A stretch of DNA of 64,000 nt from positions 94,224-158,223 of IMG/VR virus record IMGVR_UViG_3300046839_000055. One strand, 5' to 3'. Positions 1,839-42,278 of the stretch are shown piece after piece. This DNA is from a virus. Its lineage: Duplodnaviria; Caudoviricetes. The position numbers and the translations under genes were made by a program. The notes beneath the pieces are model-generated. The model was not told where the DNA came from. It did not search any database and saw nothing but the letters and a program-made list of their open reading frames with translations. The stretch's first letter is position 1; each line of letters begins with the position of its first letter.

Positions 1839-1853
1839 TCGCCTCCTTCCTGC

Positions 1854-2342: not shown

Positions 2343-2690
2343 TCTGATCACCCCTCCCCGCACGACTGCTTTCCTTCCTGCTCAACAGCAATGCATACTG
2401 ATGGAGCCTTGCCCTGTTTCTGATTCTGCTTAGTTCCTCAGCGTACATCTGCAGATGTCTTTTCATATGTCCTCTTCGTCCTCCTCAAACTCCTGCAGCA
2501 TTCGTATTTTGCTGCACAGCTCATCTCCGACATACAGGGAAAAGCTGGCTGTATGCGATCATAAGCTCCTCAAAATCATCCGTCATCTGCTCTAAGAGTT
2601 CTGCGCACCGCTCGACCGCATCGCGCCTTGCTTCGGCTGCCCTGCTTCTGTTCTGGAAAAACTCTGATGTTTTCACCTACATCTCCTCCT

Positions 2691-3500: not shown

Positions 3501-3566
3501 TCATTTTTTCCTTTAAAAAAGACGCCTCACCCTGAAGGTAAAGCGTCTGTACTAAAAAGTGATGTA

Positions 3567-4508: not shown

Positions 4509-5316
4509 TTCTCAGTACCTCCTTTATCGTCTCCTGATAGGCTTCCGCTACCTTGCCCTTGGGATCATAGGCAAATATGCTTTTTCCTTCTGCACTGATC
4601 TCCGCAGCCCGGATGGAACGCGGAATCTCAGAATTAAAGATTCGGATTTTGGATCCATAGGTTGCCCGGATCAGGCTGCTGATGTCCTTTGCGTAATTCG
4701 TCCTGCCATCCACCATCGTCAGAAGAATCCCCTCGATCCGCAGCTTCGGATTGATCTGTCTTTTTACCTTGTTGATCGTCTGCAGAAGCTGCTCAAGGCC
4801 CTTGGCAGACAGGTAGTTGGCCTGTACCGGGATCAGTGCAGAATCCGCAGCGACGAGCGAATTCACTGTCAGCATCCCCAGACTCGGCATGCAGTCCAGC
4901 AGCACATAGTCGTATCTGCCCTTGATCGGTTCAAGAAACTGTTTCAAAACCCTCTCCCGGTTCATCGCATTGACCAGAGCCACCTCCAGTCCTGCCATCG
5001 CAATGTTGGATGGGATCAGGTCTACTCCTTCCTGCTGGTGAAGAATGCCCTTTGATATGTCTACGTAGTTGTCATTGATCAGCGACGCAAGCATATCGGC
5101 CAATGTCATCTCCAGATCATCCGGCTTCGGATAGCCGAGACAGATCGTCAGCGATGCCTGCGGATCAACATCCACAAGCAGCACCTTCTTCCCGCATCTG
5201 GCAAGTCCGATCCCGAGATTCTCCACCGTTGTAGTTTTTGCTGTGCCACCCTTCTGATTGACGACAGCCATTACTGTAGTTTTGTCTTTCATCTGCCTTT
5301 CTCGCTTTCTTATCAC
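4465..5316 (-). CDS. parA: ParA/Soj ATPase (start may be ATG 5292)
   Basis: Deviant Walker A NQKGGTAKTTT, DVDPQASLT, DCMPSLG. Confidence 0.93.
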   Translation of the reverse strand: MIRKRERQMKDKTTVMAVVNQKGGTAKTTTVENLGIGLARCGKKVLLVDVDPQASLTICLGYPKPDDLEMTLADMLASLINDNYVDISKGILHQQEGVDLIPSNIAMAGLEVALVNAMNRERVLKQFLEPIKGRYDYVLLDCMPSLGMLTVNSLVAADSALIPVQANYLSAKGLEQLLQTINKVKRQINPKLRIEGILLTMVDGRTNYAKDISSLIRATYGSKIRIFNSEIPRSIRAAEISAEGKSIFAYDPKGKVAEAYQETIKEVLRNAEKRRKHQLEQLR

Positions 5317-6311
5317 GTCCCGTACAAATCGTGATTGACCTGTGCCCGGTAGTAGTGGTCAATCGTCAGCGGTGCGTTATACAGCATCGTCAGCATATAT
5401 GCCCTGATATTGCGGATATCTGAGGTCTGATCACGAAAGCAGTTCAAAATGTATTCCATGTGACTGTAATCCAGCTTCATGATCTGGCTTTTTACCAAAG
5501 CTGCCGGCTTATCCTCCCGGTTCACCCGGATTACAGGACTGGTACTGCACATGATGTCCACGCACATATCTAGTAGCTCGTCCACGGTCTGCGTCTCAAA
5601 CTGACGATTCTGCTTCAGACTTTCAATTTCCAGCTTTTCCCGGAAGTAATCCTGATATTCCTTTCTCGTTTGCAAAGAATCATGTGATATCCCATCGATC
5701 TCATCGTTTCCTGTTCCGTATTGCTCCAGAGGTTCTTCGCGCGGGGTAGTATCTGGATAGATAGGATTGATAGGATTCATATTATTAATTTCAGTCTGGT
5801 TATTATCAGTCTTATTAGTGTGTGATTCGCACACTTCCAGAGATGTGATATTCACACCCGCAGAAATGTGATTTTCACACTTCTGGACCTCCTCATTTGC
5901 TTCAGAAGTGTGATTTTCACACTTCTTGAAATGTGATTCTGAAGTATGGTCTGAACTTCCTGTGGAAAACTTCAGAACATAGGTCAGAGACGGCTTTCCA
6001 AGTCCCTGCCGCTTGCGTCTGATCAGTCCTGCCTTTTTCTCCAGCTCACTCAGCAGCTTCACCGCTTTCTGGTTACCGCACTGCAGATCGCTCATGATGT
6101 CTTCCACTGTGTAAATGATGTATGCTCTGTTCTGATCATCAAACCATCCATTTTTCATCGACAGGGACAGGCGATCCAGCATCAGCCCGTATAAAAGTTT
6201 TGCTTCAACGGAAACTTCGCGGAATTCTTCGCCGGTGATCAATGTCTTCGGAATCCGGTAGAACAGAAACTGTTCCGCATCTTCCTGTCCGTAGAAATAA
6301 TCGAATGCCAT
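5313..6311 (-). CDS. repA: RepA_N-family replication initiator with DUF6017-like C-terminus
   Basis: FYRIPKTL, EAKLLYGLMLDRLSLS..NGW.D, RQGLGKP; C-terminal IRNIRAYMLTMLYNAP. Confidence 0.9.
   Translation of the reverse strand: MAFDYFYGQEDAEQFLFYRIPKTLITGEEFREVSVEAKLLYGLMLDRLSLSMKNGWFDDQNRAYIIYTVEDIMSDLQCGNQKAVKLLSELEKKAGLIRRKRQGLGKPSLTYVLKFSTGSSDHTSESHFKKCENHTSEANEEVQKCENHISAGVNITSLEVCESHTNKTDNNQTEINNMNPINPIYPDTTPREEPLEQYGTGNDEIDGISHDSLQTRKEYQDYFREKLEIESLKQNRQFETQTVDELLDMCVDIMCSTSPVIRVNREDKPAALVKSQIMKLDYSHMEYILNCFRDQTSDIRNIRAYMLTMLYNAPLTIDHYYRAQVNHDLYGT
5819..5938. repeat. Iteron-like repeats in centre of repA (candidate oriV)
   Basis: TGTGAnnnnCACAC units at ~5821, 5844, 5867 and 5909; perfect IR AGAAGTGTGA-TTT-TCACACTTCT at 5904-5926. 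Confidence 0.7.
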
Positions 6312-8473: not shown

Positions 8474-10537
8474 TTATTCATCAGCTTGTTTACTGTATGA
8501 CTGCTCGATCAGTTCCATCACATCGTCAATCTCTGACGTATGTTCAAAAAACACCTCAACATCACCATTGCCCCATCTGCCAAGACCGGTGATGTCTTTG
8601 CACAGTCCTTTTGGATCATGAATCTCTGAAAACTTCATATTCAAAGAAATTCGAAGGCGCTGTTTCTGAACAACGATATCAACGAAATTGGTATCCAACT
8701 TGTAGGCGATATACAGCTTCTTAAACTCACGCTTCACATCCGGTGACAGATTACAAATTCGTCTGTCGAGCATATCAAAAAGCGTCCGTGTAAATGCATT
8801 GATATCGTAAGAGTCAATCGTGTATTTCTGGGCAGGCTTTTCCTCTACCTGATATGGCGCAAGTTCAGCAGCAGTAATCTCAGGATAAGTCCATATCTGT
8901 TCTGCCTTTTCGGCCAGCAACTTTGCACGTTCTTTTATGTGCTGTTCATTCCACTCTGTCAGCTTTACCAGATAGGCATTAAGACGCAGAGCGCTTTCTT
9001 TGAATCCACCCTCCATATCCATTTTTACCATAAATGGATTATCGCTCATTTCCGAGTTATAAGCTGTTAGTGTCAGGTTTCCTATTGTATGCAGATAGGT
9101 CTTCTGAACCTCTTTCCAATTTGCGCCAAGCATAGTCTTCCACTCGTCACGTGGATTGCTGTTCTGTGGCATAATGTGTTCAATCGTATAATTCTCGATA
9201 ATGATTGGAGCTTTGTTACCGAAGTTTTCAAGGTGGCTGAGAATGAAGTTTCTGGAACGCATATTGTAAATGTCACGGGACACAAATGCCTTCTCGAATT
9301 TCTCATCATCCGGGAACTCTTTATAGTCATCGCGCAGTACGAAGAAGGCCTTAATAGAATTCATATAATCATCGGTCTTGATTTCATTACGCAGCGTCGC
9401 AAACGTCTTATTAAGCGAATTCGTCGGAATGTCGCAGATGCTTCTACGAAATACATAACTGATGCACATCTTGATAATCTCAATAAGATCATCTTCCGTG
9501 ATAACGCCCTCTGTGCAATCGTTATGCACTTTGAGCAAGAACGGGAATGCTACTTCCATGCGAAGATCGCCAATATCTGAGTACAAAGATTTTAAGACAG
9601 GCTTGTCACTCCTGCGGAATACCATGTTTGTATAGTATGTAGCATAGGTCAGCAGGTCGGCGCAAAGTTCCCGAATCGTGCTGAATTCACAATTCAAGTG
9701 ATAGGCTTTGAATCCCTCATAAACCCGGTCGATCTTCGGGATACGCGTAGTCTTCATCGTCAGGTAATCACGGAAAAATCTATCCATGACAGAGTCCTGC
9801 TTCTCATAATCAAAGAGCAGCTCCATCGGTCTCCACATGTGCTCATATACATATCGTTGTTCTGACGGTTCAAGCCCCATCAGCACATAGTTTCGGATTA
9901 AGTCAGATTCAGACAATTCTTTACCTGTAGAGTTCAAGCTCTCGAAAATTGCCTGCGCATCATCCACATTTCGATCAAGCGTAATATTGACAATCTGTAG
10001 TTTACCTATAGCCTCGTAGACATCTTTCGGCTGCAACTCCATATCAGCTATTTTACCGGCAAAAAAGTTATAGTTCGACAAGATGCGCGACAGACCGGGA
10101 TCACTAATTGGCTTCTTCTCAACGAGACTAATCAGCAGGTCACGGTCAGTTTCTGTAAGAAGCAATTTGTACCTCTCGTCACCATCCTCATATTCGTTCT
10201 TCAGAAGCATATTATCGATGCGACGAGCATTGATAGTGCCATCTTCCGGATGTTCTTCCGCATAGTCGCGGAGGGCAATCAGCAGCAAGCTCAGCGTGGT
10301 TAACTGCCCATCAATTATCATATATTTCTGAACACCAGTCGGCATTGCCTGTTCCGCAATATTTACGATAGAGCCAACAAAGTGACCGACCTTATCCTTT
10401 TTCTGCATGTCAACGATATCATTCCAAAGGCGACTGCATTGTTCCGTCTCCCAACTGTAGTATCTCTGATATACAGGAATGAGAAACTGCTTATTTCCAT
10501 TTAAGATGGCGTAGATATTACCTTTTGTCGCGTCCAT
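8474..10537 (-). CDS. GmrSD-family (DUF262+DUF1524+DUF5655-like) type IV restriction protein with DGQQR motif deleted to DGQ
   Basis: IPVYQRYYSW, IIDGQ--LTT, IFESLNSTG (DUF262); TIEHIMPQ...IGNLTL..YNS (HNH, DUF1524); C-terminal KLYIAYK...GRWGNGD. Confidence 0.88.
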   Translation of the reverse strand: MDATKGNIYAILNGNKQFLIPVYQRYYSWETEQCSRLWNDIVDMQKKDKVGHFVGSIVNIAEQAMPTGVQKYMIIDGQLTTLSLLLIALRDYAEEHPEDGTINARRIDNMLLKNEYEDGDERYKLLLTETDRDLLISLVEKKPISDPGLSRILSNYNFFAGKIADMELQPKDVYEAIGKLQIVNITLDRNVDDAQAIFESLNSTGKELSESDLIRNYVLMGLEPSEQRYVYEHMWRPMELLFDYEKQDSVMDRFFRDYLTMKTTRIPKIDRVYEGFKAYHLNCEFSTIRELCADLLTYATYYTNMVFRRSDKPVLKSLYSDIGDLRMEVAFPFLLKVHNDCTEGVITEDDLIEIIKMCISYVFRRSICDIPTNSLNKTFATLRNEIKTDDYMNSIKAFFVLRDDYKEFPDDEKFEKAFVSRDIYNMRSRNFILSHLENFGNKAPIIIENYTIEHIMPQNSNPRDEWKTMLGANWKEVQKTYLHTIGNLTLTAYNSEMSDNPFMVKMDMEGGFKESALRLNAYLVKLTEWNEQHIKERAKLLAEKAEQIWTYPEITAAELAPYQVEEKPAQKYTIDSYDINAFTRTLFDMLDRRICNLSPDVKREFKKLYIAYKLDTNFVDIVVQKQRLRISLNMKFSEIHDPKGLCKDITGLGRWGNGDVEVFFEHTSEIDDVMELIEQSYSKQADE

Positions 10538-13712: not shown

Positions 13713-13805
13713 GAGTCTCACTCCTTCGTTTATTTCTTACATTATCCTCTTCTTAGAGGTGGTTTTCATTCATCTTTGCTCCGTTTCAAACAAGAATTTA
13801 GCAGC

Positions 13806-15047
13806 TTAAAGGTCAAGGTCGGAAGCATCAATTTCACCGGACATGAGCTTTGGTAGTAGAGCATCACGCATATTCGCAAGCTTTTCATTCTGGAGTCCAT
13901 TTGCAAATATGACGTCAAAAACCGAATGACAAAATGCATCAAATTTTTCTACAAGCTCTACCGGCGGCAATATGATAGGTTCGGTCTCTATGAAACCGGA
14001 GATATCAAGGTTTTTAATACCTGTTGTCCCGTTTTCATACAGGAAGAAGACGTTTTTGTCATATAGATACTGCCAATAGTAGTACACGAACATGCTATAA
14101 CCCGATTTAGGTTTCATCGCTTTACAGAAATTTGTGCAAACCATACCTTTGTCGTAACGATCAAGGAGCGACTGGGAAATTGATGCAATCCTTCCTGTTG
14201 ATTGTGTGGGACTTCCTCCGGAAATCTCTACAACAACATCGCCAGCGACGAGATGCTTTGCAACATAGTTCTTTGGCAAGATAAAGCGAGTAGGCATTTT
14301 ACCTTTATTGCCGCTTTTGACATCAGGGATGTCAGCGCCTCGAATGCAATAGACCATCTCAGTATTGTTACCGAGTGGGGAATCCTTTCCCCAGTCACCG
14401 GCAATCATGGTATCAATAATGTCGCTAAAAGTGCCTGTTTCCCAAGAAGAGGATTCAGGTGCATCAATGAACCATGATTTGAAGATAGATTGAGCTTGCG
14501 CTTCTAAATTCTTGTTTACCTCCGTATTCTGTGTTATTTTCCTATCCAAGCTACCAAGAACATCTGCAATCTTTTTCTGCGTGGCAAGATCAGGAATTTC
14601 TATTTCCAAATTCTCAATATCTGACGGCTTGATTGATGGATATGCAGATGTACTTTGCTCTGCAATTGCATGGAGCGCTTCCACAAGAGTAGCTTGCGTA
14701 AGCAGATAATAAAGAAAATCCGCATCTAACACTTGGGCATCTGTATCAATAACCGCAAATCCTGTCGACACAAGAAAGTTCTCCGGCTGTGATTTAACGA
14801 TTCCAAAGTGGCGCTGATTCGGGCGCACCGTAGAATATATGATGCTGTCCTTTTTAACTTTCCTTCTTGCCCTGCTTGGGAGTTTTTCGTTCTTTACATC
14901 TATATACTGAATGGAATCAATCTTATTATCGGTAATGTTACCAGTATCCAGATAATTGACAAAATTCCACTCTTCTTTAGGAGAATACGAATCCATATTT
15001 GTTTTGCAAACATCACCTAATCTGATTTTTCTCCATGCTTCCATCAT
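13806..15047 (-). CDS. hsdS: Type I R-M specificity subunit, currently full length (two TRDs)
   Basis: Two TRDs, central PDLATQKKIADVLGSLDRKI..N..NKNLE and terminal LANMRDALLPKLMSGEI conserved regions. Confidence 0.93.
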   Translation of the reverse strand: MMEAWRKIRLGDVCKTNMDSYSPKEEWNFVNYLDTGNITDNKIDSIQYIDVKNEKLPSRARRKVKKDSIIYSTVRPNQRHFGIVKSQPENFLVSTGFAVIDTDAQVLDADFLYYLLTQATLVEALHAIAEQSTSAYPSIKPSDIENLEIEIPDLATQKKIADVLGSLDRKITQNTEVNKNLEAQAQSIFKSWFIDAPESSSWETGTFSDIIDTMIAGDWGKDSPLGNNTEMVYCIRGADIPDVKSGNKGKMPTRFILPKNYVAKHLVAGDVVVEISGGSPTQSTGRIASISQSLLDRYDKGMVCTNFCKAMKPKSGYSMFVYYYWQYLYDKNVFFLYENGTTGIKNLDISGFIETEPIILPPVELVEKFDAFCHSVFDVIFANGLQNEKLANMRDALLPKLMSGEIDASDLDL

Positions 15048-15056
15048 GTCACCGTC

Positions 15057-16046
15057 CTAACCTATATATTTTCTGTGTGCCAATTTTACATTGCTTTGTT
15101 TTACCATCGCATATTGCAGCGTCGTATCAATCCGCTTATGACCAAGCAGCTGCTGCAGCTGTTCAATCGGCATCCCTTTGTCAATTGCCATCGTAGCAAG
15201 TGTACGGCGGAACTTGTGCGGATGTACTTTCTCTATATCCAACCTTTTCCCAAGCTCTCGAAGCCTACGCTCAATGCCGCCGATCTTCAGCCTCTCATGC
15301 GGAGCCCGGAGCGATACAAACAGTGCCGGATTATCATCAGTGCGTTCTTGCAGGTAGTTCTGTAAATGAATCTTAGCCCGTGCGTCAAAGTACACCATCC
15401 GTTCTTTGCTACCTTTACCGAACACAACACATTCCCGTTCCTCGAAGTTGATGTCATCCCTGTTAAGCAAAACCAGCTCTCCGACACGCATCCCCGTTGA
15501 GGCAAGCATATCTATCAGTGCCAGATCTCTTGGCTCCTCGCAATTGTCGCGCATTTTCTCCAAGGCCTCATCGGTATATGTCTCCTTGATAGTCAAGGCT
15601 GCCTTCACCTTATGGATACGGCGTGCCGGGCTCTTTAGGATATAATCCTCATCCTCCAGCCAAGAGAAGAAGCTCGACAGAATTCTTCTGATATTGTCCA
15701 CCGTGACCTTGCTGGAGTTTTTCTCCCGCTGATATTCTGTCAGGTACGTACGCAGGTCATCCGTTTCCATCTCTCGGACATTCTTTTTAACCTTTGCTGT
15801 CATCGTTTCTATCGTAGTCCGATAATAAGTCAACGACTTTTCAGAACATCCCTCGATCCGCTTTGCCGCGAGAAAATTATCCAAAAGCTGTTCATTTGTT
15901 AACGTCGCATTTACTTCTTCCTCCGTCTCGCTTACTTGCTTATGGAACAATGCGTGTTCCAGCACTTCTTGCAGTCTTTCCAACTGCACATTGTTGAGGC
16001 AGCCGAGCATGCCCTGCATAACCTCGTTGATTACTTTCTGTTTCAT
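15057..16046 (-). CDS. Tyrosine recombinase (hsdS invertase)
   Basis: TGMRVGEL, GKGSKER, HPHKFRRT, LLGH, TLQY catalytic residues; lies between hsdS segments; ATG 16046 after AAAGGAG. Confidence 0.92.
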   Translation of the reverse strand: MKQKVINEVMQGMLGCLNNVQLERLQEVLEHALFHKQVSETEEEVNATLTNEQLLDNFLAAKRIEGCSEKSLTYYRTTIETMTAKVKKNVREMETDDLRTYLTEYQREKNSSKVTVDNIRRILSSFFSWLEDEDYILKSPARRIHKVKAALTIKETYTDEALEKMRDNCEEPRDLALIDMLASTGMRVGELVLLNRDDINFEERECVVFGKGSKERMVYFDARAKIHLQNYLQERTDDNPALFVSLRAPHERLKIGGIERRLRELGKRLDIEKVHPHKFRRTLATMAIDKGMPIEQLQQLLGHKRIDTTLQYAMVKQSNVKLAHRKYIG

Positions 16047-16134
16047 AGTCTGTTCTCCTTTTCTATCGTAGAGAAAGACTACGGAGTGGCAATCCCTCTT
16101 TTTAACTCTTGCCACTCGCAAGAGTTATGGTTGT

Positions 16135-16782
16135 ATGTTAAACAAGAATTTACTTGAGCAAGTACGGGCACTGTACAAAGATCGCTTTATAGACCTAATG
16201 CCATTTGGTGGTTCTATGCCTTCAGATTGGCATCTCGGCACTGTGTCCGAAATCATCGAGCTTCACGATTCGAAGCGAATCCCACTTTCAAGTCGTGAAC
16301 GCGCAGAGTTGGATAAAATTTATCCATACTACGGCGCAACCTCTGTAATGGACTATGTGGACAGGTACCTTTTCGATGGAATCTATCTGCTCCTCGGAGA
16401 GGATGGTACTGTTATTGACGGGCAAGGTTTCCCAATCCTTCAGTATGTTGAGGGTAAATTCTGGGTTAATAACCATGCCCACATAATCACTGGTAAGAAC
16501 GGATTCACAGTCGAACTGCTATACCTTTTATTCAGTTTAACAAATGTGCAGTCCATTGTTACCGGAGCCGTTCAACCGAAGATCAGTCAAGCCAATCTGA
16601 ATAAGGTTCCTATCGTTATTCCGTCAGAAGCAGAACTAAAAGCATTTGATGAGAGTATCCAGCCGTTCTTTGCAGAAATCCGTAATTTACGGGCTGAAAA
16701 CGATAGGCTTGCTACTGTACGAGATAGCATGTTACCACGCTTAATGTCCGGAGAGCTTGACGTATCCGATCTGGATTTTTAA
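16135..16782 (+). CDS. hsdS: Inverted, probably silent hsdS 3' half (one TRD plus C-terminal conserved region)
   Basis: Starts at the inversion site (NKNL) and ends LATVRDSMLPRLMSGEL; opposite strand to the operon. Confidence 0.88.
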   Translation: MLNKNLLEQVRALYKDRFIDLMPFGGSMPSDWHLGTVSEIIELHDSKRIPLSSRERAELDKIYPYYGATSVMDYVDRYLFDGIYLLLGEDGTVIDGQGFPILQYVEGKFWVNNHAHIITGKNGFTVELLYLLFSLTNVQSIVTGAVQPKISQANLNKVPIVIPSEAELKAFDESIQPFFAEIRNLRAENDRLATVRDSMLPRLMSGELDVSDLDF

Positions 16783-17315
16783 GCTGCTAAATTCTTGTTT
16801 ATCTCAGTGTTCAGTTGAATCTTGTCATCTAATGCCTTCAGCAATCCTCCTATTTTCTTTTGCTCATCGAAATCGGGAACAGCTATTCGCAAGTTAGCCA
16901 CCACGTCAGTTTGAACTCTTTGCCTACCGGAAGACCCAACCATAGATTTAATCGCCGGATCACGTACAAGCGGACTGCAAATCAGATAGTACAAATAGTC
17001 CGGATCGGTTCCTTCTTTTGCTCTGAAAACAATGTATTCAGTGGAGCCAAAGCCGACTTCTCCATTATCAAGGCATCTGACCTGAGCGGTTTTCCCGTTC
17101 TCAAGGCAAGGAGTAATTCTTGCCATGATCGTATCCATGTTCCTGAACTTTGTCCCGCCTTTGAATTCCTCCATCTGATAGCCGGGAACATCTCTCGTAA
17201 AAGGTTGAAGCACGTCCATAGGGATTTTCTTCGCTACTGATCCTTTGCTTATTGACTCACGAGGATTTATCTGGGCGATGTCAGAAATGCTTCTTGTTAT
17301 CCATTCAGATTTCAT
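16779..17315 (-). CDS. hsdS: hsdS 5' half (one TRD), currently ending NKNLAA*
   Basis: ATG overlaps hsdM end; ARITPCLENGK TRD, PDFDEQKKIGGLLKALDDKIQLN conserved region, stop 2 codons after the inversion site. Confidence 0.9.
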   Translation of the reverse strand: MKSEWITRSISDIAQINPRESISKGSVAKKIPMDVLQPFTRDVPGYQMEEFKGGTKFRNMDTIMARITPCLENGKTAQVRCLDNGEVGFGSTEYIVFRAKEGTDPDYLYYLICSPLVRDPAIKSMVGSSGRQRVQTDVVANLRIAVPDFDEQKKIGGLLKALDDKIQLNTEINKNLAA

Positions 17316-18813
17316 ACCCAATCGCCCCCAGCTTCTTTCTGATCTCGTCCTCAAGTTCATGAGACTTCTTGAACATCTCGGAAAGCTCAGAAGTCAGGCG
17401 GTCCATTTTCTCCTCGAACGGTTCGCCGTCGTCTTCCTGCTCCTCGATGCCGACATACCGGCCCGGTGTCAGAATGTAGTCCTGCTTTGCGATGTCCTGC
17501 GTGGTGGCAACGGCGCAGAATCCCTTCACGTCCTCGAGTGTTCCATACTGGAAAGCCGAGAAGGTGTCAGCGAGCTTCTGGATGTCCTCGTCTGTGAAGT
17601 CGCGGTGCTTCCGGTCGACCATATGCCCCATCTTCCGGGCGTCGATGAAGACCGTCTTGCCTTTCTGTTTCTTGTTTTTCGTGATGAACCAGAGCGTGAC
17701 CGGGATCGTGACGCTGTAGAAGAGCTGCGTCGGCATGGCGACGATGCCTTCGATCAGGTCGTCATTGATGATGTTTTTGCGGATCTCACCCTCGCCACTC
17801 GACTGCGTAGAGAGAGCGCCATTCGCCAGCACCAGACCGATCTTGCCGTTTGGAGCAAGGTGGAAGATCATGTGCTGAATCCACGCATAGTTGGCGTTCC
17901 CGGCAGGCGGCAGGCCATACTTCCAGCGCTTGTCTTCCTTCAGGTCTTCCTGCCCCCACGGATGATAGTTGAAGGGAGGATTTGCGAGGATGTAATCTGC
18001 CTTCAAAGTCGGATGCAGGTCGTTGGTGAAGGTGTCCGCATTGTATGGCCCGAGGTCAGCGTCGATTCCACGGATGGCCATGTTCATCTTCGCCATCTTC
18101 CAGGTATCCGGATTTGCCTCTTGACCATACACAGAAATCACGCCGCGATTATGGCTGTGACCCTCCGCGAATCGTTCACTCTGTACAAACATTCCACCGC
18201 TGCCACAGCAACAATCGTATACGCGGGAATTCGGCTCCGGCTTGAGTATTGCGACCAGCGTTTTGACGATGCTGGACGGCGTATAGAATTCGCCGCCGCC
18301 GACGCCTTCCTTCTCCGCAAACTGCGCAATGCAATACTCATACGTGCGCCCGAGCAGATCTTCACTCGCCTGCGTATCAGACATGTCGATGTTGTTCGTG
18401 AAGATGTCCACGACATCGCCAAGGACCTTCTTATCCAGATCCGGCGAAGCGTAGTTCTTCGGCAGCACGCCTTTCAGACTCTTGTTGTCATCCTCGATAG
18501 CGCGCATCGCCTTGTCGATGACTGTTCCGATCTCCGGTGTATGAGCAGCTGCAGCGATGGTTTCCCAGCGCGCTTCCTTTGGCACGAAGAAGATGTTGTC
18601 CATCAGGTAGGCGTCCGGATCATCCTCGAACCCATCGCCGTCCTCGACCAGCTTCTTGTACTGCGCCTCGAACGCAGCCGAAATGTAGCGAAGGAAGATA
18701 AGGCCGATGATGACCTTCCTGTACTCCGCCGCCGGAATGTGTCCCCACAGGACGCACGCCGCATCCCATATCTGTTTCTCAAAGCCAATATTGGCATTCG
18801 TCTTTTCAGCCAT
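17305..18813 (-). CDS. hsdM: Type I R-M methyltransferase subunit M
   Basis: GEFYTP, YDCCCGSGGMF, ILANPPFN, YILTPGRYVG. Confidence 0.96.
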   Translation of the reverse strand: MAEKTNANIGFEKQIWDAACVLWGHIPAAEYRKVIIGLIFLRYISAAFEAQYKKLVEDGDGFEDDPDAYLMDNIFFVPKEARWETIAAAAHTPEIGTVIDKAMRAIEDDNKSLKGVLPKNYASPDLDKKVLGDVVDIFTNNIDMSDTQASEDLLGRTYEYCIAQFAEKEGVGGGEFYTPSSIVKTLVAILKPEPNSRVYDCCCGSGGMFVQSERFAEGHSHNRGVISVYGQEANPDTWKMAKMNMAIRGIDADLGPYNADTFTNDLHPTLKADYILANPPFNYHPWGQEDLKEDKRWKYGLPPAGNANYAWIQHMIFHLAPNGKIGLVLANGALSTQSSGEGEIRKNIINDDLIEGIVAMPTQLFYSVTIPVTLWFITKNKKQKGKTVFIDARKMGHMVDRKHRDFTDEDIQKLADTFSAFQYGTLEDVKGFCAVATTQDIAKQDYILTPGRYVGIEEQEDDGEPFEEKMDRLTSELSEMFKKSHELEDEIRKKLGAIGYEI

Positions 18814-18819
18814 TTGTGA

Positions 18820-19068
18820 TTACTCCTCGTTTTCCGTTTTCTTTATTGATTCAACCGCCGGTTCTTCATCCTTTACGATCTCCATAATGTCGGAGACTTC
18901 GCAGTTGAGGGCTACGCATATTCGGAGAAGGACATCAGTGTTCACGTTGCCGCCTTTAGCGAGTTTTGCGATTGAGGTGGCGCTGACTCCGCTCATTTCC
19001 CGTAGCTGTTTCTTTTTAATGTTTCTGTCGATCAATAGCTTGAACAATCTGTTATAGCTAAAGCGCAT
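18820..19068 (-). CDS. Small Cro/C1-type HTH protein upstream of hsdM
   Basis: SYNRLFKLLIDRNIKKKQLREMSGVSATSIAKLAKG...LLRICVALNC..DI. Confidence 0.85.
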   Translation of the reverse strand: MRFSYNRLFKLLIDRNIKKKQLREMSGVSATSIAKLAKGGNVNTDVLLRICVALNCEVSDIMEIVKDEEPAVESIKKTENEE

Positions 19069-19115
19069 ATCGTTGCCTCCGTACTTTCACCCTTCTATAT
19101 AGCTATGAATGCTTA

Positions 19116-20942
19116 TTACTTCACATCATTTAAAAACCCATACCGTTTACCCGGTTCCTCGACTTTCTCGAACGTGGTGACAGTCGCACCGCTGCCTTCA
19201 TAATCCAGGTTCGGAATATGGTCGAGATTTTCTATAATGATGAGCTGTCCCTCGTCCTGATGATTCATGAAATAACGGTAGAGTCCAGCCCGCATGCTTT
19301 CTGGCATGCCTTCATCCACGCCGTCGTCGAATCCGTGGAGTGGTGTGTCGATGATGAATGTGTGCGGATCGAACTTTGCAAAATTGGCCAGGTATTTTCT
19401 GATCATCAGAATCATTACCGTGTTCAGATATGACCGGTATCCTTTTCCGTGACTTGTTCCCTTATCCTCGCCATTGACCATGATGTCGAACTTCGTGAAG
19501 TTGAATGTTGCCTTCAACAGATCAGAGTAATGGCATTCCTTGAGGATCGTCTGTGCATATTCCGACATGGTCGGAACGAAATCGTCGCTGAAGTATTCCT
19601 TCGGATGGTACTCGGTCGTCGTGTCGTTTTTCTGCTCGTTTTCAAGATCATCCAGATCGCTGCCAAAATCCTCTGCATAGGAATCGATGAGACTCATTTC
19701 CGTTTCAATCCGCAGGTAGGCCTTGTAGGAATTCACGATGTTCATCTGCTGAGACTCCTGTGGCCGGAGTTCCTTTTTGATTCTGGATTCAAGCGAATCA
19801 CGTTGCTCTTTGAGTTTCCGGAGATCCTCCTGTACTTCCTTCTTCTGGTCATCCACGTCCTTTTCAGTTTCTTGAAGGCCGGACAGCTGGGACATCGTTC
19901 GCTCCATAGTGATACGAGCTGACTGCATGTAGGACTTTCGCTTACGCGGATTGACCGGATTGTCACAGTACGGACAAATGAGCGGCTGCTGCACATTCTG
20001 GTATGCTTCCTCGCCCTCGGCGATAAGAGAAAGCCTCTGAATATCGCCTTTATACTGACTTGCAAGTTTCTGGTATCGGTTCAGAAGAACATTGCATTCT
20101 GCGATCTGCTGTTCGTCATCAAGAATGGCTGCGAGGATCTTCTGTCTTTCCTCCAGAGCCTGATCTATCTTTTTTCGCGTTTCATCAAGTGCCGCTGTAG
20201 CTTCAGCAATCTGAGCTTCCACATCTACGCCATCAAAGATGTGCAGATCCTCTTCGAGTTTTTTCTTCCGGTCCGTCGCATTCTGAATCTTCTGATTCAC
20301 GTAGTCCTTGACTGCCTTGCGGCGGGCCTTCTTTATTTCCTTTTTCTCCTGCGCATCTGTTTCGGTAAATGTCCGGCCAGTAATCAGATATAGGAGCGCC
20401 GACAGAAAGAGAGTGTTTTCCATATAACGATGGCTCGGTTCCACAATGGAATCGATGTCGTCCACACGGCCTTCATCCAGATAGAAGACGCGCAGCAGGT
20501 TCTTCCAAGTGAGGCGCTTTGTCTCGAACCGGGCATTTGTCACGATCATGACTTCTGGCTCTATGCCGATAAGCCGAAGCCATACATCATTCAGCGGAGG
20601 ATTCTTGGCGTTCTTCCTATAGTTAATGTCGTAGGTTCCGCTGTCAATTCCTGATATTGTGCTTGTGACGTCAACCTGGTTTTTCCCTACGGTACGACGA
20701 AGCGTTATTTCTCCGGGCTTGTCATTCGATCCCACGATCATGGTCACGCTATCGTACTTTGCCGAATCCTTGAACGGCTTGCTCACAGAGCCGCCGTATA
20801 TAAAGTCGATGCAGTTTGCAACACACGTCTTTCCGCTGTCTGAGCGGCCCTGAATGATGTTCAGGCCCGTGCCGAAGGTAACGCTGGCATCGCCTTTTTC
20901 GGCGCTGTTCGCTATGACTCTTTTGATATAGAATCCCGCCAC
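19116..20942 (-). CDS. SMC/Rad50-like ABC ATPase of an ABC three-component (Lamassu LmuB-like) system
   Basis: Walker A GRSDSGKT, coiled coils with central CPYC zinc hook, SHGKG signature, IIDTP Walker B. Confidence 0.85.
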   Translation of the reverse strand: MAGFYIKRVIANSAEKGDASVTFGTGLNIIQGRSDSGKTCVANCIDFIYGGSVSKPFKDSAKYDSVTMIVGSNDKPGEITLRRTVGKNQVDVTSTISGIDSGTYDINYRKNAKNPPLNDVWLRLIGIEPEVMIVTNARFETKRLTWKNLLRVFYLDEGRVDDIDSIVEPSHRYMENTLFLSALLYLITGRTFTETDAQEKKEIKKARRKAVKDYVNQKIQNATDRKKKLEEDLHIFDGVDVEAQIAEATAALDETRKKIDQALEERQKILAAILDDEQQIAECNVLLNRYQKLASQYKGDIQRLSLIAEGEEAYQNVQQPLICPYCDNPVNPRKRKSYMQSARITMERTMSQLSGLQETEKDVDDQKKEVQEDLRKLKEQRDSLESRIKKELRPQESQQMNIVNSYKAYLRIETEMSLIDSYAEDFGSDLDDLENEQKNDTTTEYHPKEYFSDDFVPTMSEYAQTILKECHYSDLLKATFNFTKFDIMVNGEDKGTSHGKGYRSYLNTVMILMIRKYLANFAKFDPHTFIIDTPLHGFDDGVDEGMPESMRAGLYRYFMNHQDEGQLIIIENLDHIPNLDYEGSGATVTTFEKVEEPGKRYGFLNDVK

Positions 20943-20946
20943 GCCA

Positions 20947-21393
20947 TTACCTCCTTAATACCTTCGTAGACTGTTTATTGATGATTCCGGATAGCTCGAC
21001 TTCTGACTTATTCCGGTATCGCCTGTGAACCTGTTTTATCACCTTCCTGTACATGGCCGCATATTCAGACTGGAATTTCCTGCTCATGGCAAGGCCTGAA
21101 CTGGAAAGCGAATAGATAATCCCTTCCATGCTGTCGGAGGCGGTGACAAGGCCGTCGAGTACCAGATCCTTGATGGCTTCCTTCATCAGCTTGCGCTTTG
21201 CAGTCAGTTCACTGAATGCGAATCCATTGTCGCCGTTCAGGGATTCGGCTTTGAATCCGAAGTCTGGCGCGTACACTGCTATGAAATCATAGTCTGTTAT
21301 CCGCTCGATGGTGAATCCGCCGCCGACGGAATCCAGGAGAAGCAGGATATGAAGCGACTGTTCAAACGGCGTGTTGAAAAGTTTATCAGCCAT
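20947..21393 (-). CDS. ABC-3C middle component (LmuC-like)
   Basis: 148 aa, LFNTPFE..L.ILLLL...YDFI..Y pattern; sits between CTD protein and ATPase. Confidence 0.75.
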   Translation of the reverse strand: MADKLFNTPFEQSLHILLLLDSVGGGFTIERITDYDFIAVYAPDFGFKAESLNGDNGFAFSELTAKRKLMKEAIKDLVLDGLVTASDSMEGIIYSLSSSGLAMSRKFQSEYAAMYRKVIKQVHRRYRNKSEVELSGIINKQSTKVLRR

Positions 21394-22363
21394 CGACTGT
21401 CACCCACGACTCAATTACGCCGTCATTAACCAGAATGTGGCAAATGCCTTTCTTTTCAAGATTCCCGATCAGGTTTCGCATCTGGCTTAGTACAGAGCCA
21501 TCAAGTGAAGTGCTCGTAATCTTCTCCAGCACAGCATTCAGTCTTGCATAGCCGTCCGGGTATTCCTTCCAGTAAGTAGTGTTGATGCCGTCCCATGCAT
21601 CGTCTTTCAGCCTTTGGAATTCATCCTCGCCCTCGTCGAATACATCCCGCACAGAGCGTTCGATACTGACGGCGCTGTAATACGCTTTCCGCTGCTCCCG
21701 GTAGTTTGCCTTCATACTTTTCGGGAGCAGGTCTAAATCGTCTCCAGTAAATGTTTCCCTGTGCAGCTTCTCCGCGAAGACCTCGTAGAGAGCTCGTATG
21801 TAGTCGAGTTCCTGCTCGGCTATGTTGTCCGGTACGAGAGCCCGGTCAATTGTTATAACCTCGCCTGCAATATGTAGTTTGTCGCCTCTGCGTTCAATTG
21901 ACGCAGGGGCGATATTTTTTAGCAGCTGACCTGATTCATAGCGCTTGTAGTCCAGCTTGACTACTTCGTCGGAAAGGCCCTCGGAGCGCCGCTTAATCAT
22001 CTGCGCGAGGATGTTCGCCAAAGCTCTGCCTACGTCATAGGAAGGCACATCGAATCCGTATTCTGCCAGCTTATCCCTTACATGATCCAGCGCATCCATC
22101 GAGTAGGTCTCTACGAAACCTGCAAATGTCTCTTCGGAAAGTCGCGGAACAATCTGGGCTGCCTTCTTTTGTGAAATGGGGCGCCTGCCACTGTAGTAAG
22201 CCTCAAGTGTGGATTTTCCGAGTCCATAAAGAGGATTCGGAGCGTCCTTTTCCAGCGCTGCATCGTCAAGGATGGCGTCAATCAATATGACGACGAATTC
22301 GCCAGCTTTTGCTTTTTCTTCATAGTTGTCGTGCATGAGCTTTGCGAACTCACAGAACCTCAC
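21386..22363 (-). CDS. ABC-3C effector-position protein: XRE-like HTH N-terminus plus ABC-3C C-terminal domain
   Basis: GLGKSTLEAYYSGRRPIS resembles the XRE recognition helix; C-terminal QRKAYYSA...GYARL..V...KKGICHILVNDGVIESW; GTG start after AAGGAGGAG. Confidence 0.7.
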   Translation of the reverse strand: MRFCEFAKLMHDNYEEKAKAGEFVVILIDAILDDAALEKDAPNPLYGLGKSTLEAYYSGRRPISQKKAAQIVPRLSEETFAGFVETYSMDALDHVRDKLAEYGFDVPSYDVGRALANILAQMIKRRSEGLSDEVVKLDYKRYESGQLLKNIAPASIERRGDKLHIAGEVITIDRALVPDNIAEQELDYIRALYEVFAEKLHRETFTGDDLDLLPKSMKANYREQRKAYYSAVSIERSVRDVFDEGEDEFQRLKDDAWDGINTTYWKEYPDGYARLNAVLEKITSTSLDGSVLSQMRNLIGNLEKKGICHILVNDGVIESWVTVDG

Positions 22364-22383
22364 GGCGCTCTCCTCCTTTCCGG

Positions 22384-22491
22384 ATGTAGGCATTCATGTA
22401 GGCAGATGTAGGCAAACGTACGAATTTCAAAATGCCGATTTCGTAAACTCATATTAGCGATTGAAAGTTACTGGGTAACACCGCAATCGCT
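22384..22491. promoter_or_regulatory. Divergent control region: 3x ATGTAGGCA and nested inverted repeat
   Basis: ATGTAGGCA at 22384, 22396, 22406; AGCGATTG/CAATCGCT (22456-22491) enclosing GTTAC/GTAAC. Confidence 0.55.
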
Positions 22492-22705
22492 GAAGACAGG
22501 AATACAAGATAATTTTACCACGCTCGCACGCAAAAATCTATTTAATTTTGTGAACGCGAAATAAATTTTAACTTCCTGTCACTGACTCAAGCGTTCCGGC
22601 TGCGCACTGACCGATCACCAGTGGCCCACACACCAGAGCGCAAACCAATTCATTAAAGGCGTGCCTATGGGCAGGAACGCCACATTACGTCACGGAGGAA
22701 AAACG

Positions 22706-22897
22706 ATGACAAAAACTGACAAGGAAATGTGGCGTATCAACATCGAGAACGACGCAGACGAAGTTTGCTCCATCTATGGAGCGGCGGCTGTCGATGGCGT
22801 GTTCCAGCGCTACGACGCGACCTGCTTCGACGATCTCAGCCCTTCCTATTACGAGGAAGTGTTCGGGGATCTGGAGCTGATGATTTACGACAACTGA
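22706..22897 (+). CDS. Small acidic phage protein, first rightward gene
   Basis: RBS GGAGG then ATG 22706; 63 aa. Confidence 0.7.
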   Translation: MTKTDKEMWRINIENDADEVCSIYGAAAVDGVFQRYDATCFDDLSPSYYEEVFGDLELMIYDN

Positions 22898-23080
22898 GAA
22901 TCTCCTATGAAACATATCGGAAAAGGGCTCCAAAACAGCCCGCAAAGCTCCATATGTTAAGAGGTTCGGATTTGCCCTGAGCAAGGCGTTAAAAGGCTCA
23001 CTGCCATAGCCGTTCACCCCGGTGCACAGAGGTGGCTCGAGCGGCTGTAGCGGTCACAAGTGAATAGGAAACCAGTCTAC

Positions 23081-23144
23081 GAGCGTGGCTGGCCGAACGA
23101 AACGAGTTGATTCCCGTTCCGTCTGGCCTGTCACGCTCCTTTTT
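23081..23144 (+). terminator. Leader terminator/attenuator upstream of sigma-like gene
   Basis: Long stem GAGCGTGGC...GTCACGCTC followed by CTTTTT. Confidence 0.6.
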
Positions 23145-23186
23145 GTGCGGCCTCCGGTTCGGGAGAAGCGAACGGAGGTATCGCAC

Positions 23187-23687
23187 ATGAAAACCAATGA
23201 CAATCAGAGTAAACGCATCTACGACAAGACCACAAAGCAGTGGTACGAAATCCCGGAGGACCAGTATAGGGAGTATGACCGCTCGCGCACCGCTCTTCGG
23301 AAACGCATGCAGTATCGAGGCGAGTGCTTCTGCCCGCGCAGCAAGTGGTGGCTGTGCGACGGCAACTGCCTCGACTGCGAATTTCACAACAACACGACCG
23401 TCTCTCTTGACGATCCGCTGCCGGACGGCGATGGAACGCTCGCCGACTATGTACCGGATGACGCTCCTCTTATTGAAGAGGTGCTTTCCGAGAAGGCGGA
23501 GCTGGATCAGCTGTTCGCACGTCTGCAGGAGCTCATGCCGGAGGCCAAGCGTATCGGCGAGCTCAGGGAGGAAGGCCTCTCCGACGAGGCCATCGCCGAC
23601 ATCATCGGCATCAAGCGCACGACATTCCTGTCACGCCTGAAGAAAGCCAAGGAAAAGCTGGCTAAGGAATTCCCCGACTGGTTCTGA
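23187..23687 (+). CDS. Phage sigma70 region-4-like transcription factor with Cys cluster
   Basis: VSLDDPL acidic linker, C-terminal HTH EGLSDEAIADIIGIKRTTFLSRLKK; CFC-x7-CDGNCLDC; RBS GGAGGT. Confidence 0.8.
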   Translation: MKTNDNQSKRIYDKTTKQWYEIPEDQYREYDRSRTALRKRMQYRGECFCPRSKWWLCDGNCLDCEFHNNTTVSLDDPLPDGDGTLADYVPDDAPLIEEVLSEKAELDQLFARLQELMPEAKRIGELREEGLSDEAIADIIGIKRTTFLSRLKKAKEKLAKEFPDWF

Positions 23688-23694
23688 TTCATCT

Positions 23695-23728
23695 GCTCCG
23701 GCTGCCATCAAGGTAGCCGGAGCTTTTT
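23695..23728 (+). terminator. Intrinsic terminator after sigma-like gene
   Basis: GCTCCGGCTGCC-ATCAA-GGTAGCCGGAGC-TTTTT. Confidence 0.8.
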
Positions 23729-23747
23729 CTGAAATTTCTCTTTTTCC

Positions 23748-23783
23748 TTCGTCAAAACGGTCTGCCCACCTCCAGTGGGAAGT
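23748..23783 (+). promoter_or_regulatory. Motif A copy 1 (TTCGTCAAAA-N11-CCTCCAGTGGRAAG)
   Basis: Identical boxes and spacing at 28290 and 61722. Confidence 0.75.
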
Positions 23784-23826
23784 GTAAGGAGCACGAAAAC
23801 AGGATGCTCCGGATTGGAGGCAAGCG

Positions 23827-24033
23827 ATGAACAAGACACGCAACAGAAGTCCCGCGGACACGGAGGCTATCGCAGTCCTTATTGCGATAAGCCATGTATC
23901 CGCAAGGCTGGCAAGGAACCTCTCGATTCTTGCCGCAGACAGACAACTCATGGAAGGAGGTAAAGAGAATGTCAAAAATGGCAGAAATGGATCAGACCAT
24001 CAAGGAACTGCGCGATGCCGCCGCTGCTATTAA
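23827..24033 (+). CDS. Hypothetical phage protein
   Basis: RBS GGAGG; LIAISHVSARLARNL helix. Confidence 0.6.
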   Translation: MNKTRNRSPADTEAIAVLIAISHVSARLARNLSILAADRQLMEGGKENVKNGRNGSDHQGTARCRRCY

Positions 24034-24301
24034 CAGCGCAGCCGACTGGCTCTACCAGCAGTTCTCCGGCAACGACGAGGAGCCCGCTCCGCAGCCTGAA
24101 ACTGCGCAGGCCGAGCCTGAGCCGAAGAAGGAGCTGAAGCTGGAGGATGTGAGGAAGGTTCTCGCCGAACGTTCCCGCGCAGGCTATACGGCGCAGATCC
24201 GCGAGCTTCTCCATAAGTACGGTGCGAGCAAGCTGTCGGCTGTCGATCCGAAGGACTACGAGGCCCTGCTCTTTGATGTGGAGGGACTCAATGAATTCTG
24301 A
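23969..24301 (+). CDS. Small phage protein preceding DUF2800 (often mislabelled Rrp5/DNA ligase)
   Basis: RBS AAGGAGGT; LEDVRKVLA..SRAG...LL.KYGA.KLS.VDP..Y. Confidence 0.75.
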   Translation: MSKMAEMDQTIKELRDAAAAINSAADWLYQQFSGNDEEPAPQPETAQAEPEPKKELKLEDVRKVLAERSRAGYTAQIRELLHKYGASKLSAVDPKDYEALLFDVEGLNEF

Positions 24302-25433
24302 AAGACAGCATGCGGTCCTCTCCGCATCAAGCTCCGACCGGTGGATTCACTGCCCGCCGTCGGTACGGCTTAGCGAGGGATTCGAGGACAAGGAAAGCGA
24401 CTACGCACTGGAAGGCACCTGCGCTCACGCGCTCGCCGAATACAAGCTCCGCAAGGCGCTCGGCTACCCGGCACAGGACCCGACCGAGGCCCTTGCCTTC
24501 TACAACGAGGAGATGGAGGAAGCAACAGATGGCTATGTCAGCTACGTACTGGAAAAGGTCGAGGCCGCAAAAGAGGCCTGCTCTGATCCGGTTGTTCTGG
24601 TCGAGCAGCGCGTGGACTACTCCCGCTGGGTGAGACAGGGCTTCGGCACATCCGATGCGCTGATCATCGCGGATGGCACGCTTTGGATCATCGATCTGAA
24701 GTACGGCACCGGCATCGCCGTGTCGGCGGAGGACAATCCGCAGCTCAAATGCTACTCGCTTGGAGCCTTGGATCTGTTCGACGGCATCTACGACATCGAC
24801 ACCGTCAGCATGACGATTTACCAGCCGAGACGGCAGAACGTCAGCGAATGGCAGATCAGCAAGAATGACCTGCTCGCATGGGCGGACGAGGTTCTGAAGC
24901 CTATGGCGGAGCTGGCGTGGGACGGCAAGGGGGAATTCTCCTGCGGCCCGTGGTGCCGGTTCTGCAAGGCGAAGACCATCTGCCGGAAGCGGGCCGAGGA
25001 GAACCTGAAGCTCGCGCAGCATGAGTTCAGGCTGCCGCCGGAGCTCTCCGACGCGGAGATCGAGGTCATCCTTTCCCAGGTGGACGAGCTGGTCTCGTGG
25101 GCGTCCGACATCAAGGAGTACGCGCTCCAACAGGCGCTCTCCGGCAAGGAGTGGCATGGCTTCAAGCTCGTCGAAGGCCGCTCCATCCGCAAGTACATCG
25201 ACGAGAACGCCGTCGCCAAGACGGTCGAAGACGCCGGATTCGATCCATTCGAGAGGAAGCTGCTCGGCATCACCGCCATGCAGAAGCTCCTCGGAAAGAA
25301 CCGATTCAATGAACTCCTGTCAGGCCTCGTTGAGAAGCCGCAGGGCAAACCAACACTCGTCCCGGACTCGGATAAGCGTCCGGCGATGAATACAGCAAAA
25401 AACGATTTTATGGAGGTCAAAAACTATGAGTAA
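24291..25433 (+). CDS. DUF2800 PD-(D/E)XK (Cas4-like) phage nuclease
   Basis: HAVLSASSSDRWIHCP, EGTCAH, FGTSD, IIDLKYG, QL.CY, WCRFCKAK..C. Confidence 0.88.
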   Translation: MNSERQHAVLSASSSDRWIHCPPSVRLSEGFEDKESDYALEGTCAHALAEYKLRKALGYPAQDPTEALAFYNEEMEEATDGYVSYVLEKVEAAKEACSDPVVLVEQRVDYSRWVRQGFGTSDALIIADGTLWIIDLKYGTGIAVSAEDNPQLKCYSLGALDLFDGIYDIDTVSMTIYQPRRQNVSEWQISKNDLLAWADEVLKPMAELAWDGKGEFSCGPWCRFCKAKTICRKRAEENLKLAQHEFRLPPELSDAEIEVILSQVDELVSWASDIKEYALQQALSGKEWHGFKLVEGRSIRKYIDENAVAKTVEDAGFDPFERKLLGITAMQKLLGKNRFNELLSGLVEKPQGKPTLVPDSDKRPAMNTAKNDFMEVKNYE

Positions 25434-42074: not shown

Positions 42075-42278
42075 GTGGTGGCACCTCCTTTGAATTTGAT
42101 ACAAAAGAGTATGTGCTATCAGGCAAAAAGGCACAATATTATGTAGAATGTTTTTACGAAAAGGCAAGTAAAAATCACTATTTTATCCGCATACTCTACA
42201 TAATGATTTTCACCGCATAATCCTCGTTATGTAGAGCTCTACATAACGAGGACATCGTGCGGAAGGTGGTGGAATGAC

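Follow-up and report, generated by a model that had tools for sequence, protein, structure and literature searches.

A probable phage-carried Lamassu immunity system with an unusual output domain, in the accessory slot of a Heliusvirales-like temperate phage

The 64,000-nt stretch of DNA analyzed here (the window; positions 94,224 to 158,223 of the IMG/VR virus record IMGVR_UViG_3300046839_000055) contains three tightly packed, co-directional genes on the minus strand at 19116-22393, in the order lmuA-lmuC-lmuB. They form a real Lamassu/ABC-3C system of the CTD6/MC2 class, and the cassette is one of several interchangeable ones in the accessory (defence) slot on the left side of a temperate, Heliusvirales-like phage that infects gut Clostridia. 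An earlier note, made from the sequence alone, had interpreted the trio as an immune sensor repurposed as the lysogeny switch of the phage. According to the results described below, the phage probably carries the trio for immunity, with an output that is unusual, and not as its lysogeny switch. With moderate confidence, we regard the trio as a prophage-borne short Lamassu that has a non-enzymatic output domain, is autoregulated via repeats in its leader, and serves the lysogen against competing elements. The trio has the following features:

21386-22363, minus strand: lmuA, encoding an N-terminal all-alpha domain (N-dom), a beta-meander, and a C-terminal domain (CTD) of the CTD6 family
21944-22363, minus strand: N-dom, residues 11-150 of the long lmuA open reading frame (ORF); 8-9 helices, no known family
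20947-21393, minus strand: lmuC, ABC-3C middle component MC2, 148 aa; 8-nt overlap with lmuA
19116-20942, minus strand: lmuB, short-type ATPase similar to structural maintenance of chromosomes (SMC) proteins and Rad50, 608 aa

The longest lmuA ORF comprises 21386-22393 and encodes 335 aa. The GTG at 22363, which the earlier note had also used, is the likely start, because the ribosome binding site (RBS) AAAGGAGGAG lies upstream of it and the resulting 325 aa fit the length of most of the 245 LmuA homologues found. Pfam assigned LmuA to CTD6 (E 6.7e-37), LmuC to MC2 (E 2.7e-38), and LmuB to AAA_23. All three proteins were matched over their full lengths by PADLOC models, LmuA by PDLC03857 (E 9.4e-99; residues 12-334 on model positions 2-326 of 327), LmuC by PDLC03875 (E 2.4e-45), and LmuB by PDLC03867 (E 6.2e-217). 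Therefore, the Lamassu-like ABC-3C trio recognized in the earlier note was confirmed, and because the models also cover the N-terminal part of LmuA, the subtype is already in the defence-system catalogue. LmuB is indeed a zinc-hook SMC-like ATPase, with the Walker A motif GRSDSGKT (G32-T39), a CPYC hook at 323, and the Walker B motif FIIDT at 529; its matches to Rad50 and ASRP in NCBIfam were weak. These motifs conform to the short-Lamassu pattern, which consists of a Walker B of the type hhhhD[Q/S/T/E] and a single zinc hook (Haudiquet et al., PMC12663957). Of the hallmarks of Lamassu/ABC-3C systems, an SMC-like LmuB, an lmuC gene between lmuA and lmuB, and a C-terminal docking/oligomerisation domain in LmuA are thus present. 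A search of the PDB sequences with LmuA, LmuB, LmuC, and two N-dom profiles yielded nothing meaningful.

The structure of LmuA was predicted with AlphaFold (AF2) on the basis of a 26-sequence alignment. The model, with a predicted local distance difference test score (pLDDT) of 79.8, has three parts, an all-alpha head, a three-stranded meander, and the CTD. The modelled CTD (residues 165-335) matched the solved LmuA CTDs 9nxx_A (Z 10.6, root-mean-square deviation 3.3, 134 residues aligned) and 9hqx_A (Z 8.6), which together with the CTD6 match corroborates the ABC-3C C-terminal domain that had been proposed for the first gene. When the whole model was used for Foldseek searches of PDB and for the VIA-wide search, the CTD alone was matched. 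Residues 11-140 of the head had a pLDDT above 90 in this model, and N-dom folded alone reached a pLDDT of 89.5 and a predicted template modelling score of 0.84. The isolated domain had no solved relative among the PDB folds (Foldseek best E 1.9; VIA-wide best Z 4.7), and a BFVD search retrieved three uncharacterised family members and nothing else.

The earlier note had described the first gene as carrying a helix-turn-helix (HTH) instead of a toxic effector. The second half of this description held. LmuA had no nuclease, protease, or TIR family match in Pfam, the PADLOC sub-models, or NCBIfam, no enzymatic fold was found for LmuA or N-dom by Foldseek against PDB, VIA-wide, or the VIA second look, and none of the N-terminal enzymatic effectors Cap4, Mrr, PD-(D/E)xK, HNH, protease, lipase, Sir2, or FMO was recognised in LmuA. 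The conserved residues of N-dom (F13, N53-P54, G69, A78, D100, and Q131) are not catalytic-looking, and the domain is acidic, with a median net charge of -9 and an isoelectric point of 4.8. According to the models, N-dom is a confidently folded all-alpha domain of about 140 aa without an enzyme signature.

The HTH itself was not demonstrated. No Pfam HTH family reached E 0.1 with this LmuA, and hhalign detected no similarity between N-dom and the HTH_26 family of the neighbouring gene (probability 1% or less). AlphaFold modelling of the head, which the earlier note had proposed, yielded an all-alpha domain to which no HTH protein was matched at Z 2 or more in the VIA-wide search and the second look, although global structure aligners could miss a sub-structure of about 45 aa such as an HTH. 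Foldseek listed Stl, TetR-type, and CI chains, all at E 1.9 or worse. Among 119 diverse N-dom relatives, 10 had sub-threshold matches to HTH_3 (best E 0.005), compared with 13 that matched MgtE_N. The 'XRE-like helix' STLEAYYSGRRPIS is plausible by eye; its framework is conserved, and the helix itself is clade-variable.

The distribution of N-dom was analyzed with a profile search over 1.84 billion representative proteins. This yielded 661 representative relatives, nearly all of which have the domain at the very N-terminus. In 80 long relatives it is joined to CTD6 (17 proteins), CTD11 (16), NB-ARC/TPR (4-6), AAA_16 (2), and HamA (1), and in a shape search of the ESM Atlas, the N-termini of NACHT-SNaCT14 proteins were matched with a template modelling (TM) score of 0.78 and CTD11 proteins with one of 0.75. 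Because N-dom occurs on CTD6, CTD11, STAND NTPases, and HamA, it is a mobile module of conflict systems, located at the effector/adaptor position of oligomerising sensors. The head is also exchanged within the lineage of the trio. Three loci (L025, L030, and L034) have an LmuA of 232-243 aa without N-dom, preceded by an unknown 'X' ORF, the loci L039-L047 have a divergent N-dom at the same slot, and in L040 a head judged by eye to be Mrr-like is present on LmuA. Such head swaps on a constant CTD6/MC2/LmuB core are the usual behaviour of Lamassu effectors.

The position of the cassette was analyzed from two sides. The following features of its surroundings are of importance here:

22364-22720, unstranded: leader and intergenic region, which travels with the cassette; blastn homology to near-identical phages begins at about 22718-22724
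22383-22414, unstranded: three direct repeats, exact 9-10 bp, (G/C)ATGTAGGCA on the plus strand and TGCCTACAT in the lmuA sense
22706-22897, plus strand: small ORF of 63 aa, the first rightward phage early gene
23187-23687, plus strand: sigma-70 region-4-like gene of the early operon
18820-19068, minus strand: small VanU-like XRE/HTH_26 gene that immediately follows lmuB and is separated from hsdM by 6 nt

As the earlier note had stated, the trio diverges from the early operon of the phage: it faces the 63-aa ORF and the sigma-like gene, which is followed by genes for DUF2800, an Enc34-type single-stranded DNA-binding protein, PolA, and a DUF3987 primase. From the Lamassu side, one genome per GTDB species was scanned with the LmuA alignment. 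This yielded 46 loci, and 32 of them had sufficient flank (more than 3 kb upstream). In 24 of these 32 loci, window-type DUF2800/PolA early genes lie on the opposite strand directly upstream of lmuA, in hosts that include Clostridia, Bacilli, and Negativicutes and with LmuA identities down to about 32%, so that the survey proposed in the earlier note bore out the positional claim. Several of the remaining loci face the early operons of other mobile elements (L011, L012, L044, and L045), and the pair L003/L010 faces host genes. Thus, CTD6-lineage Lamassu keeps a position divergent from phage early genes. In 30 of 37 related loci, the gene next after lmuB is an HTH_26 gene.

From the phage side, 80 viral contigs with DUF2800 identities of 65-96% were inspected, about 52 of them with enough flank. 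The trio was found in only about 5 of these 52 loci, and the others carry unrelated cassettes. When positions 17000-24400 of the window were compared with the 80 loci by blastn, the homology to phages with 90-95% identical early regions ended at 22718-22724, and in other phages at 22972 or 23211. In about 25 loci (L052, L060, L081, and L100 among them), more than for any other occupant, the DNA immediately left of the early genes holds a PDC-S06-type cassette that comprises an unknown 'X' protein of 293-354 aa, a protein of about 212-220 aa, a mad1-like HTH_17 protein, and an SMC/Rad50-like ATPase of 760-790 aa. The ATPase matched PADLOC PDC-S06 (E 2.1e-190), and 'X' had no family in Pfam, NCBIfam, or PADLOC; this cassette of X, a protein of about 216 aa, HTH_17, and an SMC-like ATPase may be an undescribed ABC-3C-like four-gene system. 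About 10 loci contain a 285-aa leader protein, a mad1-like HTH, and a type I restriction-modification (RM) system, two loci contain an N-dom leader protein with a PDC-M68A-like tail, a small protein, a PDC-M68B-like ATPase, and HTH_26, and some slots contain single large proteins. Because near-identical phages replace the trio with a restriction system, the function of the slot is accessory and not that of a lysogeny switch. In summary, we regard the slot as a hotspot for defence genes and not as the place of a repressor.

The three direct repeats upstream of lmuA have start-to-start spacings of 12 and 10 bp and end 4 nt before the lmuA RBS (22370-22379). The exact 9-mer does not occur elsewhere in the 64-kb window. 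In all 21 of the 21 related N-dom loci examined, two or three direct repeats are present at -56 to -26 of the lmuA start, and their sequences are clade-specific (TGCCTACAT, GCATACAT, GGACAT, TGGACAG, GTGTAC, CGAACA, TGGGGTA, and CGGGAT). Loci that have divergent heads and no HTH_26 gene also carry repeats (TTTGACC three times in L039 and L042), and the leaders of the other cassette types likewise contain two to three direct repeats. Near the early genes and their promoter in related loci, the motif was found only sporadically, at no fixed position and without consistent recurrence. A sigma-70 consensus scan of 22364-22705 did not reveal a promoter. Since the repeats occur only beside lmuA and not at the early promoter, autoregulation of the cassette is suggested, and the repeats are probably the site at which a cassette-encoded protein regulates its own operon, with N-dom as one candidate. 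An inverted repeat of 24 nt was noted at 23081-23138 (79% complementary, 10-nt loop), in the segment that relatives share, about 50 nt upstream of the start of the sigma-like gene; the early operon could use it as an operator or attenuator.

The HTH_26 protein is an unlikely binder of the repeats, because its recognition helix hardly varies, in contrast to the repeats, which differ from clade to clade. Covariation of the putative recognition helix of LmuA with the repeats did not emerge convincingly. Between the window and L003/L010 (75% identity, different repeats), five of the six positions of this helix differ, but this was not counted as evidence, since LmuA diverges more strongly elsewhere and LmuC has diverged further overall (57%).

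For sensing, output, and repeat binding we infer the following course; for sensing and release, the sequestration, release, and tetramer formation of LmuA in solved Lamassu complexes serve as the model (10.1101/2025.03.14.643221, PMC12663957). A dimer of LmuB together with LmuC would grip the CTD of a monomeric LmuA. When a phage or plasmid invades, its DNA ends or replication intermediates would trigger the release of LmuA, and the CTD would drive oligomerisation of the freed protein. N-dom would act as an oligomerisation-gated, non-enzymatic module, most likely as a binder of nucleic acids or of a protein target. In addition, a cassette-encoded protein, possibly N-dom, would bind the helical-turn-spaced repeats and thereby autoregulate the operon.

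Several points weigh against this reading. The anti-phage activity of the subtype is assumed from family membership, and for a Lamassu without an enzymatic effector, no means of stopping a phage has been demonstrated. DNA binding by N-dom, considered from sequence and model, is a weakly founded hypothesis because the domain is acidic and has no significant match to an HTH or any other fold. LmuC or a further protein of the cassette could also be the one that binds the repeats, or the repeats could act at the RNA level. Lastly, a location at the switch region in 24 of 32 loci is a tighter linkage than expected for freely mobile cargo, which leaves room for a phage-specific role.

A more far-reaching possibility, which we consider unlikely, is that N-dom is an oligomerisation-gated DNA-binding head and that CTD6/CTD11 Lamassu and STAND sensors with this head end in a transcriptional response, not in killing. 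The DNA-end sensor would in that case set its own operon via the triple repeats and possibly also cargo or phage genes, including a RecA-independent input into the lysis-lysogeny decision. The STAND-class HTH regulators MalT and AfsR are comparable in that oligomerisation of the sensor unites DNA-binding heads. N-dom is likewise found on NB-ARC/TPR and NACHT proteins; however, MalT and AfsR have bona fide LuxR or SARP domains, whereas N-dom lacks a significant HTH family match.

In an adaptor model, which we consider rather doubtful, N-dom would be Death-like or effector-associated and would recruit a separately encoded effector or a host protein, leaving the trio as sensor and scaffold only. 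The domain is all-alpha, acidic, and free of conserved catalytic-type residues, it occupies the N-terminus of NACHT, NB-ARC, and ABC-3C proteins, which is a known adaptor position, and many of the 661 relatives are stand-alone N-dom proteins of about 135 aa that could be homotypic partners. However, the window contains no stand-alone N-dom gene and no gene for N-dom plus an enzyme near the trio, the two stand-alone genes that were looked up each lie on a contig of about 1 kb without gene context and may be fragments, and no Death or effector-associated domain (EAD) family was matched.

It is also improbable that the trio is a regulatory leader, i.e. a DNA-end-responsive transcription controller of the downstream HTH gene, the type I RM system, and GmrSD. 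The genes are closely spaced, with gaps of 47 nt between lmuB and the HTH gene and 6 nt between the HTH gene and hsdM, no terminator-like sites were found between the three, repeats are present upstream of every cassette leader, and N-dom-like p285 proteins head operons of mad1 and type I RM genes in relatives. On the other hand, in most related loci the trio and the HTH gene precede different RM genes or none, a controller would hardly call for machinery as costly as an SMC-like sensor, and the similarity of the p285 proteins to N-dom is weak. This p285 leader family comprises proteins of 275-335 aa (L057 6202-7267, L062, L054, L083, L114, and L127), the N-termini of which matched the N-dom profile with E-values of 7e-5 to 7e-4, and the p285 leader region contains CAGGTC three times.

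The lysogeny or induction switch inferred in the earlier note would use N-dom as a repressor head that LmuBC holds or releases on DNA ends, so that damage or superinfection flips the state of the phage independently of RecA. This notion has some basis. Opposite the early operon, the first gene to the left is lmuA, a place that the CTD6 lineage keeps in 24 of 32 loci; at the equivalent position, the nearest named relative, Acutalibacteraceae phage NatCom_11578 (PV036426, Ca. Heliusvirales; complete, circularly permuted), carries an XRE gene of the ordinary kind (113 aa) together with operator-like sites that are repeated. N-dom is non-enzymatic, it has the weak HTH_3 hints, and operator-like repeats adjoin its gene. 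The window has no S24 or ImmA-type gene, as the earlier note had stated: Peptidase_S24 (PF00717) is absent from the whole 158-kb record, the sole M78 match (PF06114) of the record lies about 21 kb upstream of the window start, and the only HTH_3-class gene inside the window is 18820-19068. Nevertheless, phages with 90-95% identical early regions carry RM or other defence cassettes instead of the trio, so the switch cannot reside in the cassette. The features of a CI-type repressor module were not found, that is, operators over the early promoter, conservation with the phage lineage (about 5 of 52), and an S24/ImmA partner. The repeats do not recur consistently near the early promoter, the acidic head has no significant HTH match by profile or fold, and N-dom also heads STAND NTPases and a type I RM cassette. 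In addition, a VanU-like HTH gene is present, and because the record stops inside the second serine recombinase, the repressor could lie outside it. Taken together, we consider a switch function of the trio improbable.

Among known systems, the trio is closest to the short Lamassu. With DdmABC of Vibrio cholerae and LmuACB of Salmonella enterica (PDB 9nxx, 9hqx) it shares the gene order lmuA-lmuC-lmuB, an LmuB of about 600 aa with Walker A and hhhhD[Q/S/T/E], and the fold of the LmuA CTD (Z 10.6 and 8.6). It differs from them in that no solved chain is matched at the sequence level, a non-enzymatic all-alpha head replaces the Cap4 nuclease, a conserved small HTH gene is added, and the trio occupies a fixed place in the phage genome. 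Lamassu systems with intact LmuB and LmuC and no recognisable LmuA effector were described in 2025 (PMC12663957), and the same condition is found here. Some relatives at the same slot have the LmuA of 232-243 aa without N-dom, whereas the LmuA of the window is untruncated, with a conserved and well-folded head of 140 aa.

The PADLOC systems PDC-M68 and PDC-S06, which occupy the same slot in sister phages, are also multi-gene systems based on an SMC/ABC-ATPase with a small HTH gene. The PDC-M68A-like leader protein shares N-dom (PDLC03857 positions 1-145, E 1.7e-11), but the C-terminal docking domains, middle components, and ATPases of these systems differ from those of the trio. The slot also resembles the prophage hotspots of P2/P4 and lambda rexAB, which is co-transcribed with cI, in that interchangeable cassettes lie beside the immunity or early region of a temperate phage. 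Here, in contrast, no canonical repressor accompanies the cassette, and each cassette has its own leader with two to three repeats. Lamassu is present in such prophage hotspots (Millman et al.).

The output of the trio is probably non-enzymatic and possibly DNA-binding. To our knowledge, the Lamassu systems studied so far all act by unleashing a cell-destroying enzyme. If a widespread lineage has a non-enzymatic all-alpha output, this would indicate that SMC-like and NLR-like immune sensors of bacteria can lead to another end-point, and sequestration, silencing, or transcriptional control are possible end-points of the N-dom lineage. Heliusvirales is a very common order of human-gut phages, and its defence hotspot, now defined and with a repeat-bearing leader in each cassette, is a source of candidate systems and of a simple cis-element.

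The window forms the terminal 64 kb of a 158-kb record that IMG/VR lists as a 'provirus'. From about 22.7 kb rightwards, it consists of a temperate siphovirus with a GC content of 0.58-0.62, which beyond the early operon encodes SNF2, a ParB-methyltransferase, TerL and the genes following it, a GH25 lysin, and the two serine recombinases. The GC content of the Lamassu cassette is 0.49-0.50. Leftward of the trio, the VanU-like HTH_26 gene, a phase-variable type I RM system, GmrSD, and conjugative-element genes were found at a GC content of 0.41-0.50. The leftward cargo lies within the phage genome, as NatCom_11578 has this block between the early genes and the recombinases. Genes for RepA_N+DUF6017, ParB, DUF5688, and DUF3801 are present at 1-6311 of the window, and the first 116 kb of the record have a uniformly lower GC content. 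The 158-kb 'provirus' is therefore a phage of about 50 kb plus neighbouring conjugative-element DNA, and for this reason the CheckV value of '100% complete' is not to be read as one virus.

The gene 18820-19068 matched HTH_26 in Pfam (E 1.1e-16) and VanU in NCBIfam (E 4.5e-22, below the family cut-off). The VanU-like HTH_26 is kept across these phages irrespective of the preceding cassette (L048 8479-8703, L075, L112, and L119), and it often heads the next cargo operon, also in relatives without the trio; in NatCom_11578, its homologue heads a helicase/methylase operon. The protein may regulate the accessory region throughout these phages, or it may be the repressor that is missing.

The remaining observations concern other parts of the window. 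At the far end of the accessory block, 8474-10537 (minus strand) encodes a type IV restriction enzyme of the GmrSD type that has DUF5655 as an additional C-terminal domain and matched Orf5/HEC-06 and PDC-S18 in PADLOC. The specificity locus of the type I RM system (13806-17360) comprises a full hsdS gene (13806-15047), a tyrosine recombinase gene (15057-16121), and two opposed half hsdS genes (16135-16782, plus strand; 16779-17360, minus strand). With its inverted repeat of 102 nt (13788-13889 and 16699-16800, 72%), it resembles a phase-variable shufflon. Three consecutive tyrosine recombinase genes (353, 333, and 441 aa) are located at 38833-42167 on the minus strand, where the local GC content is about 0.49 within a phage of 0.6, and resemble a recombinase-in-trio element that has entered the phage between the genes for the ParB-methylase and the terminase.

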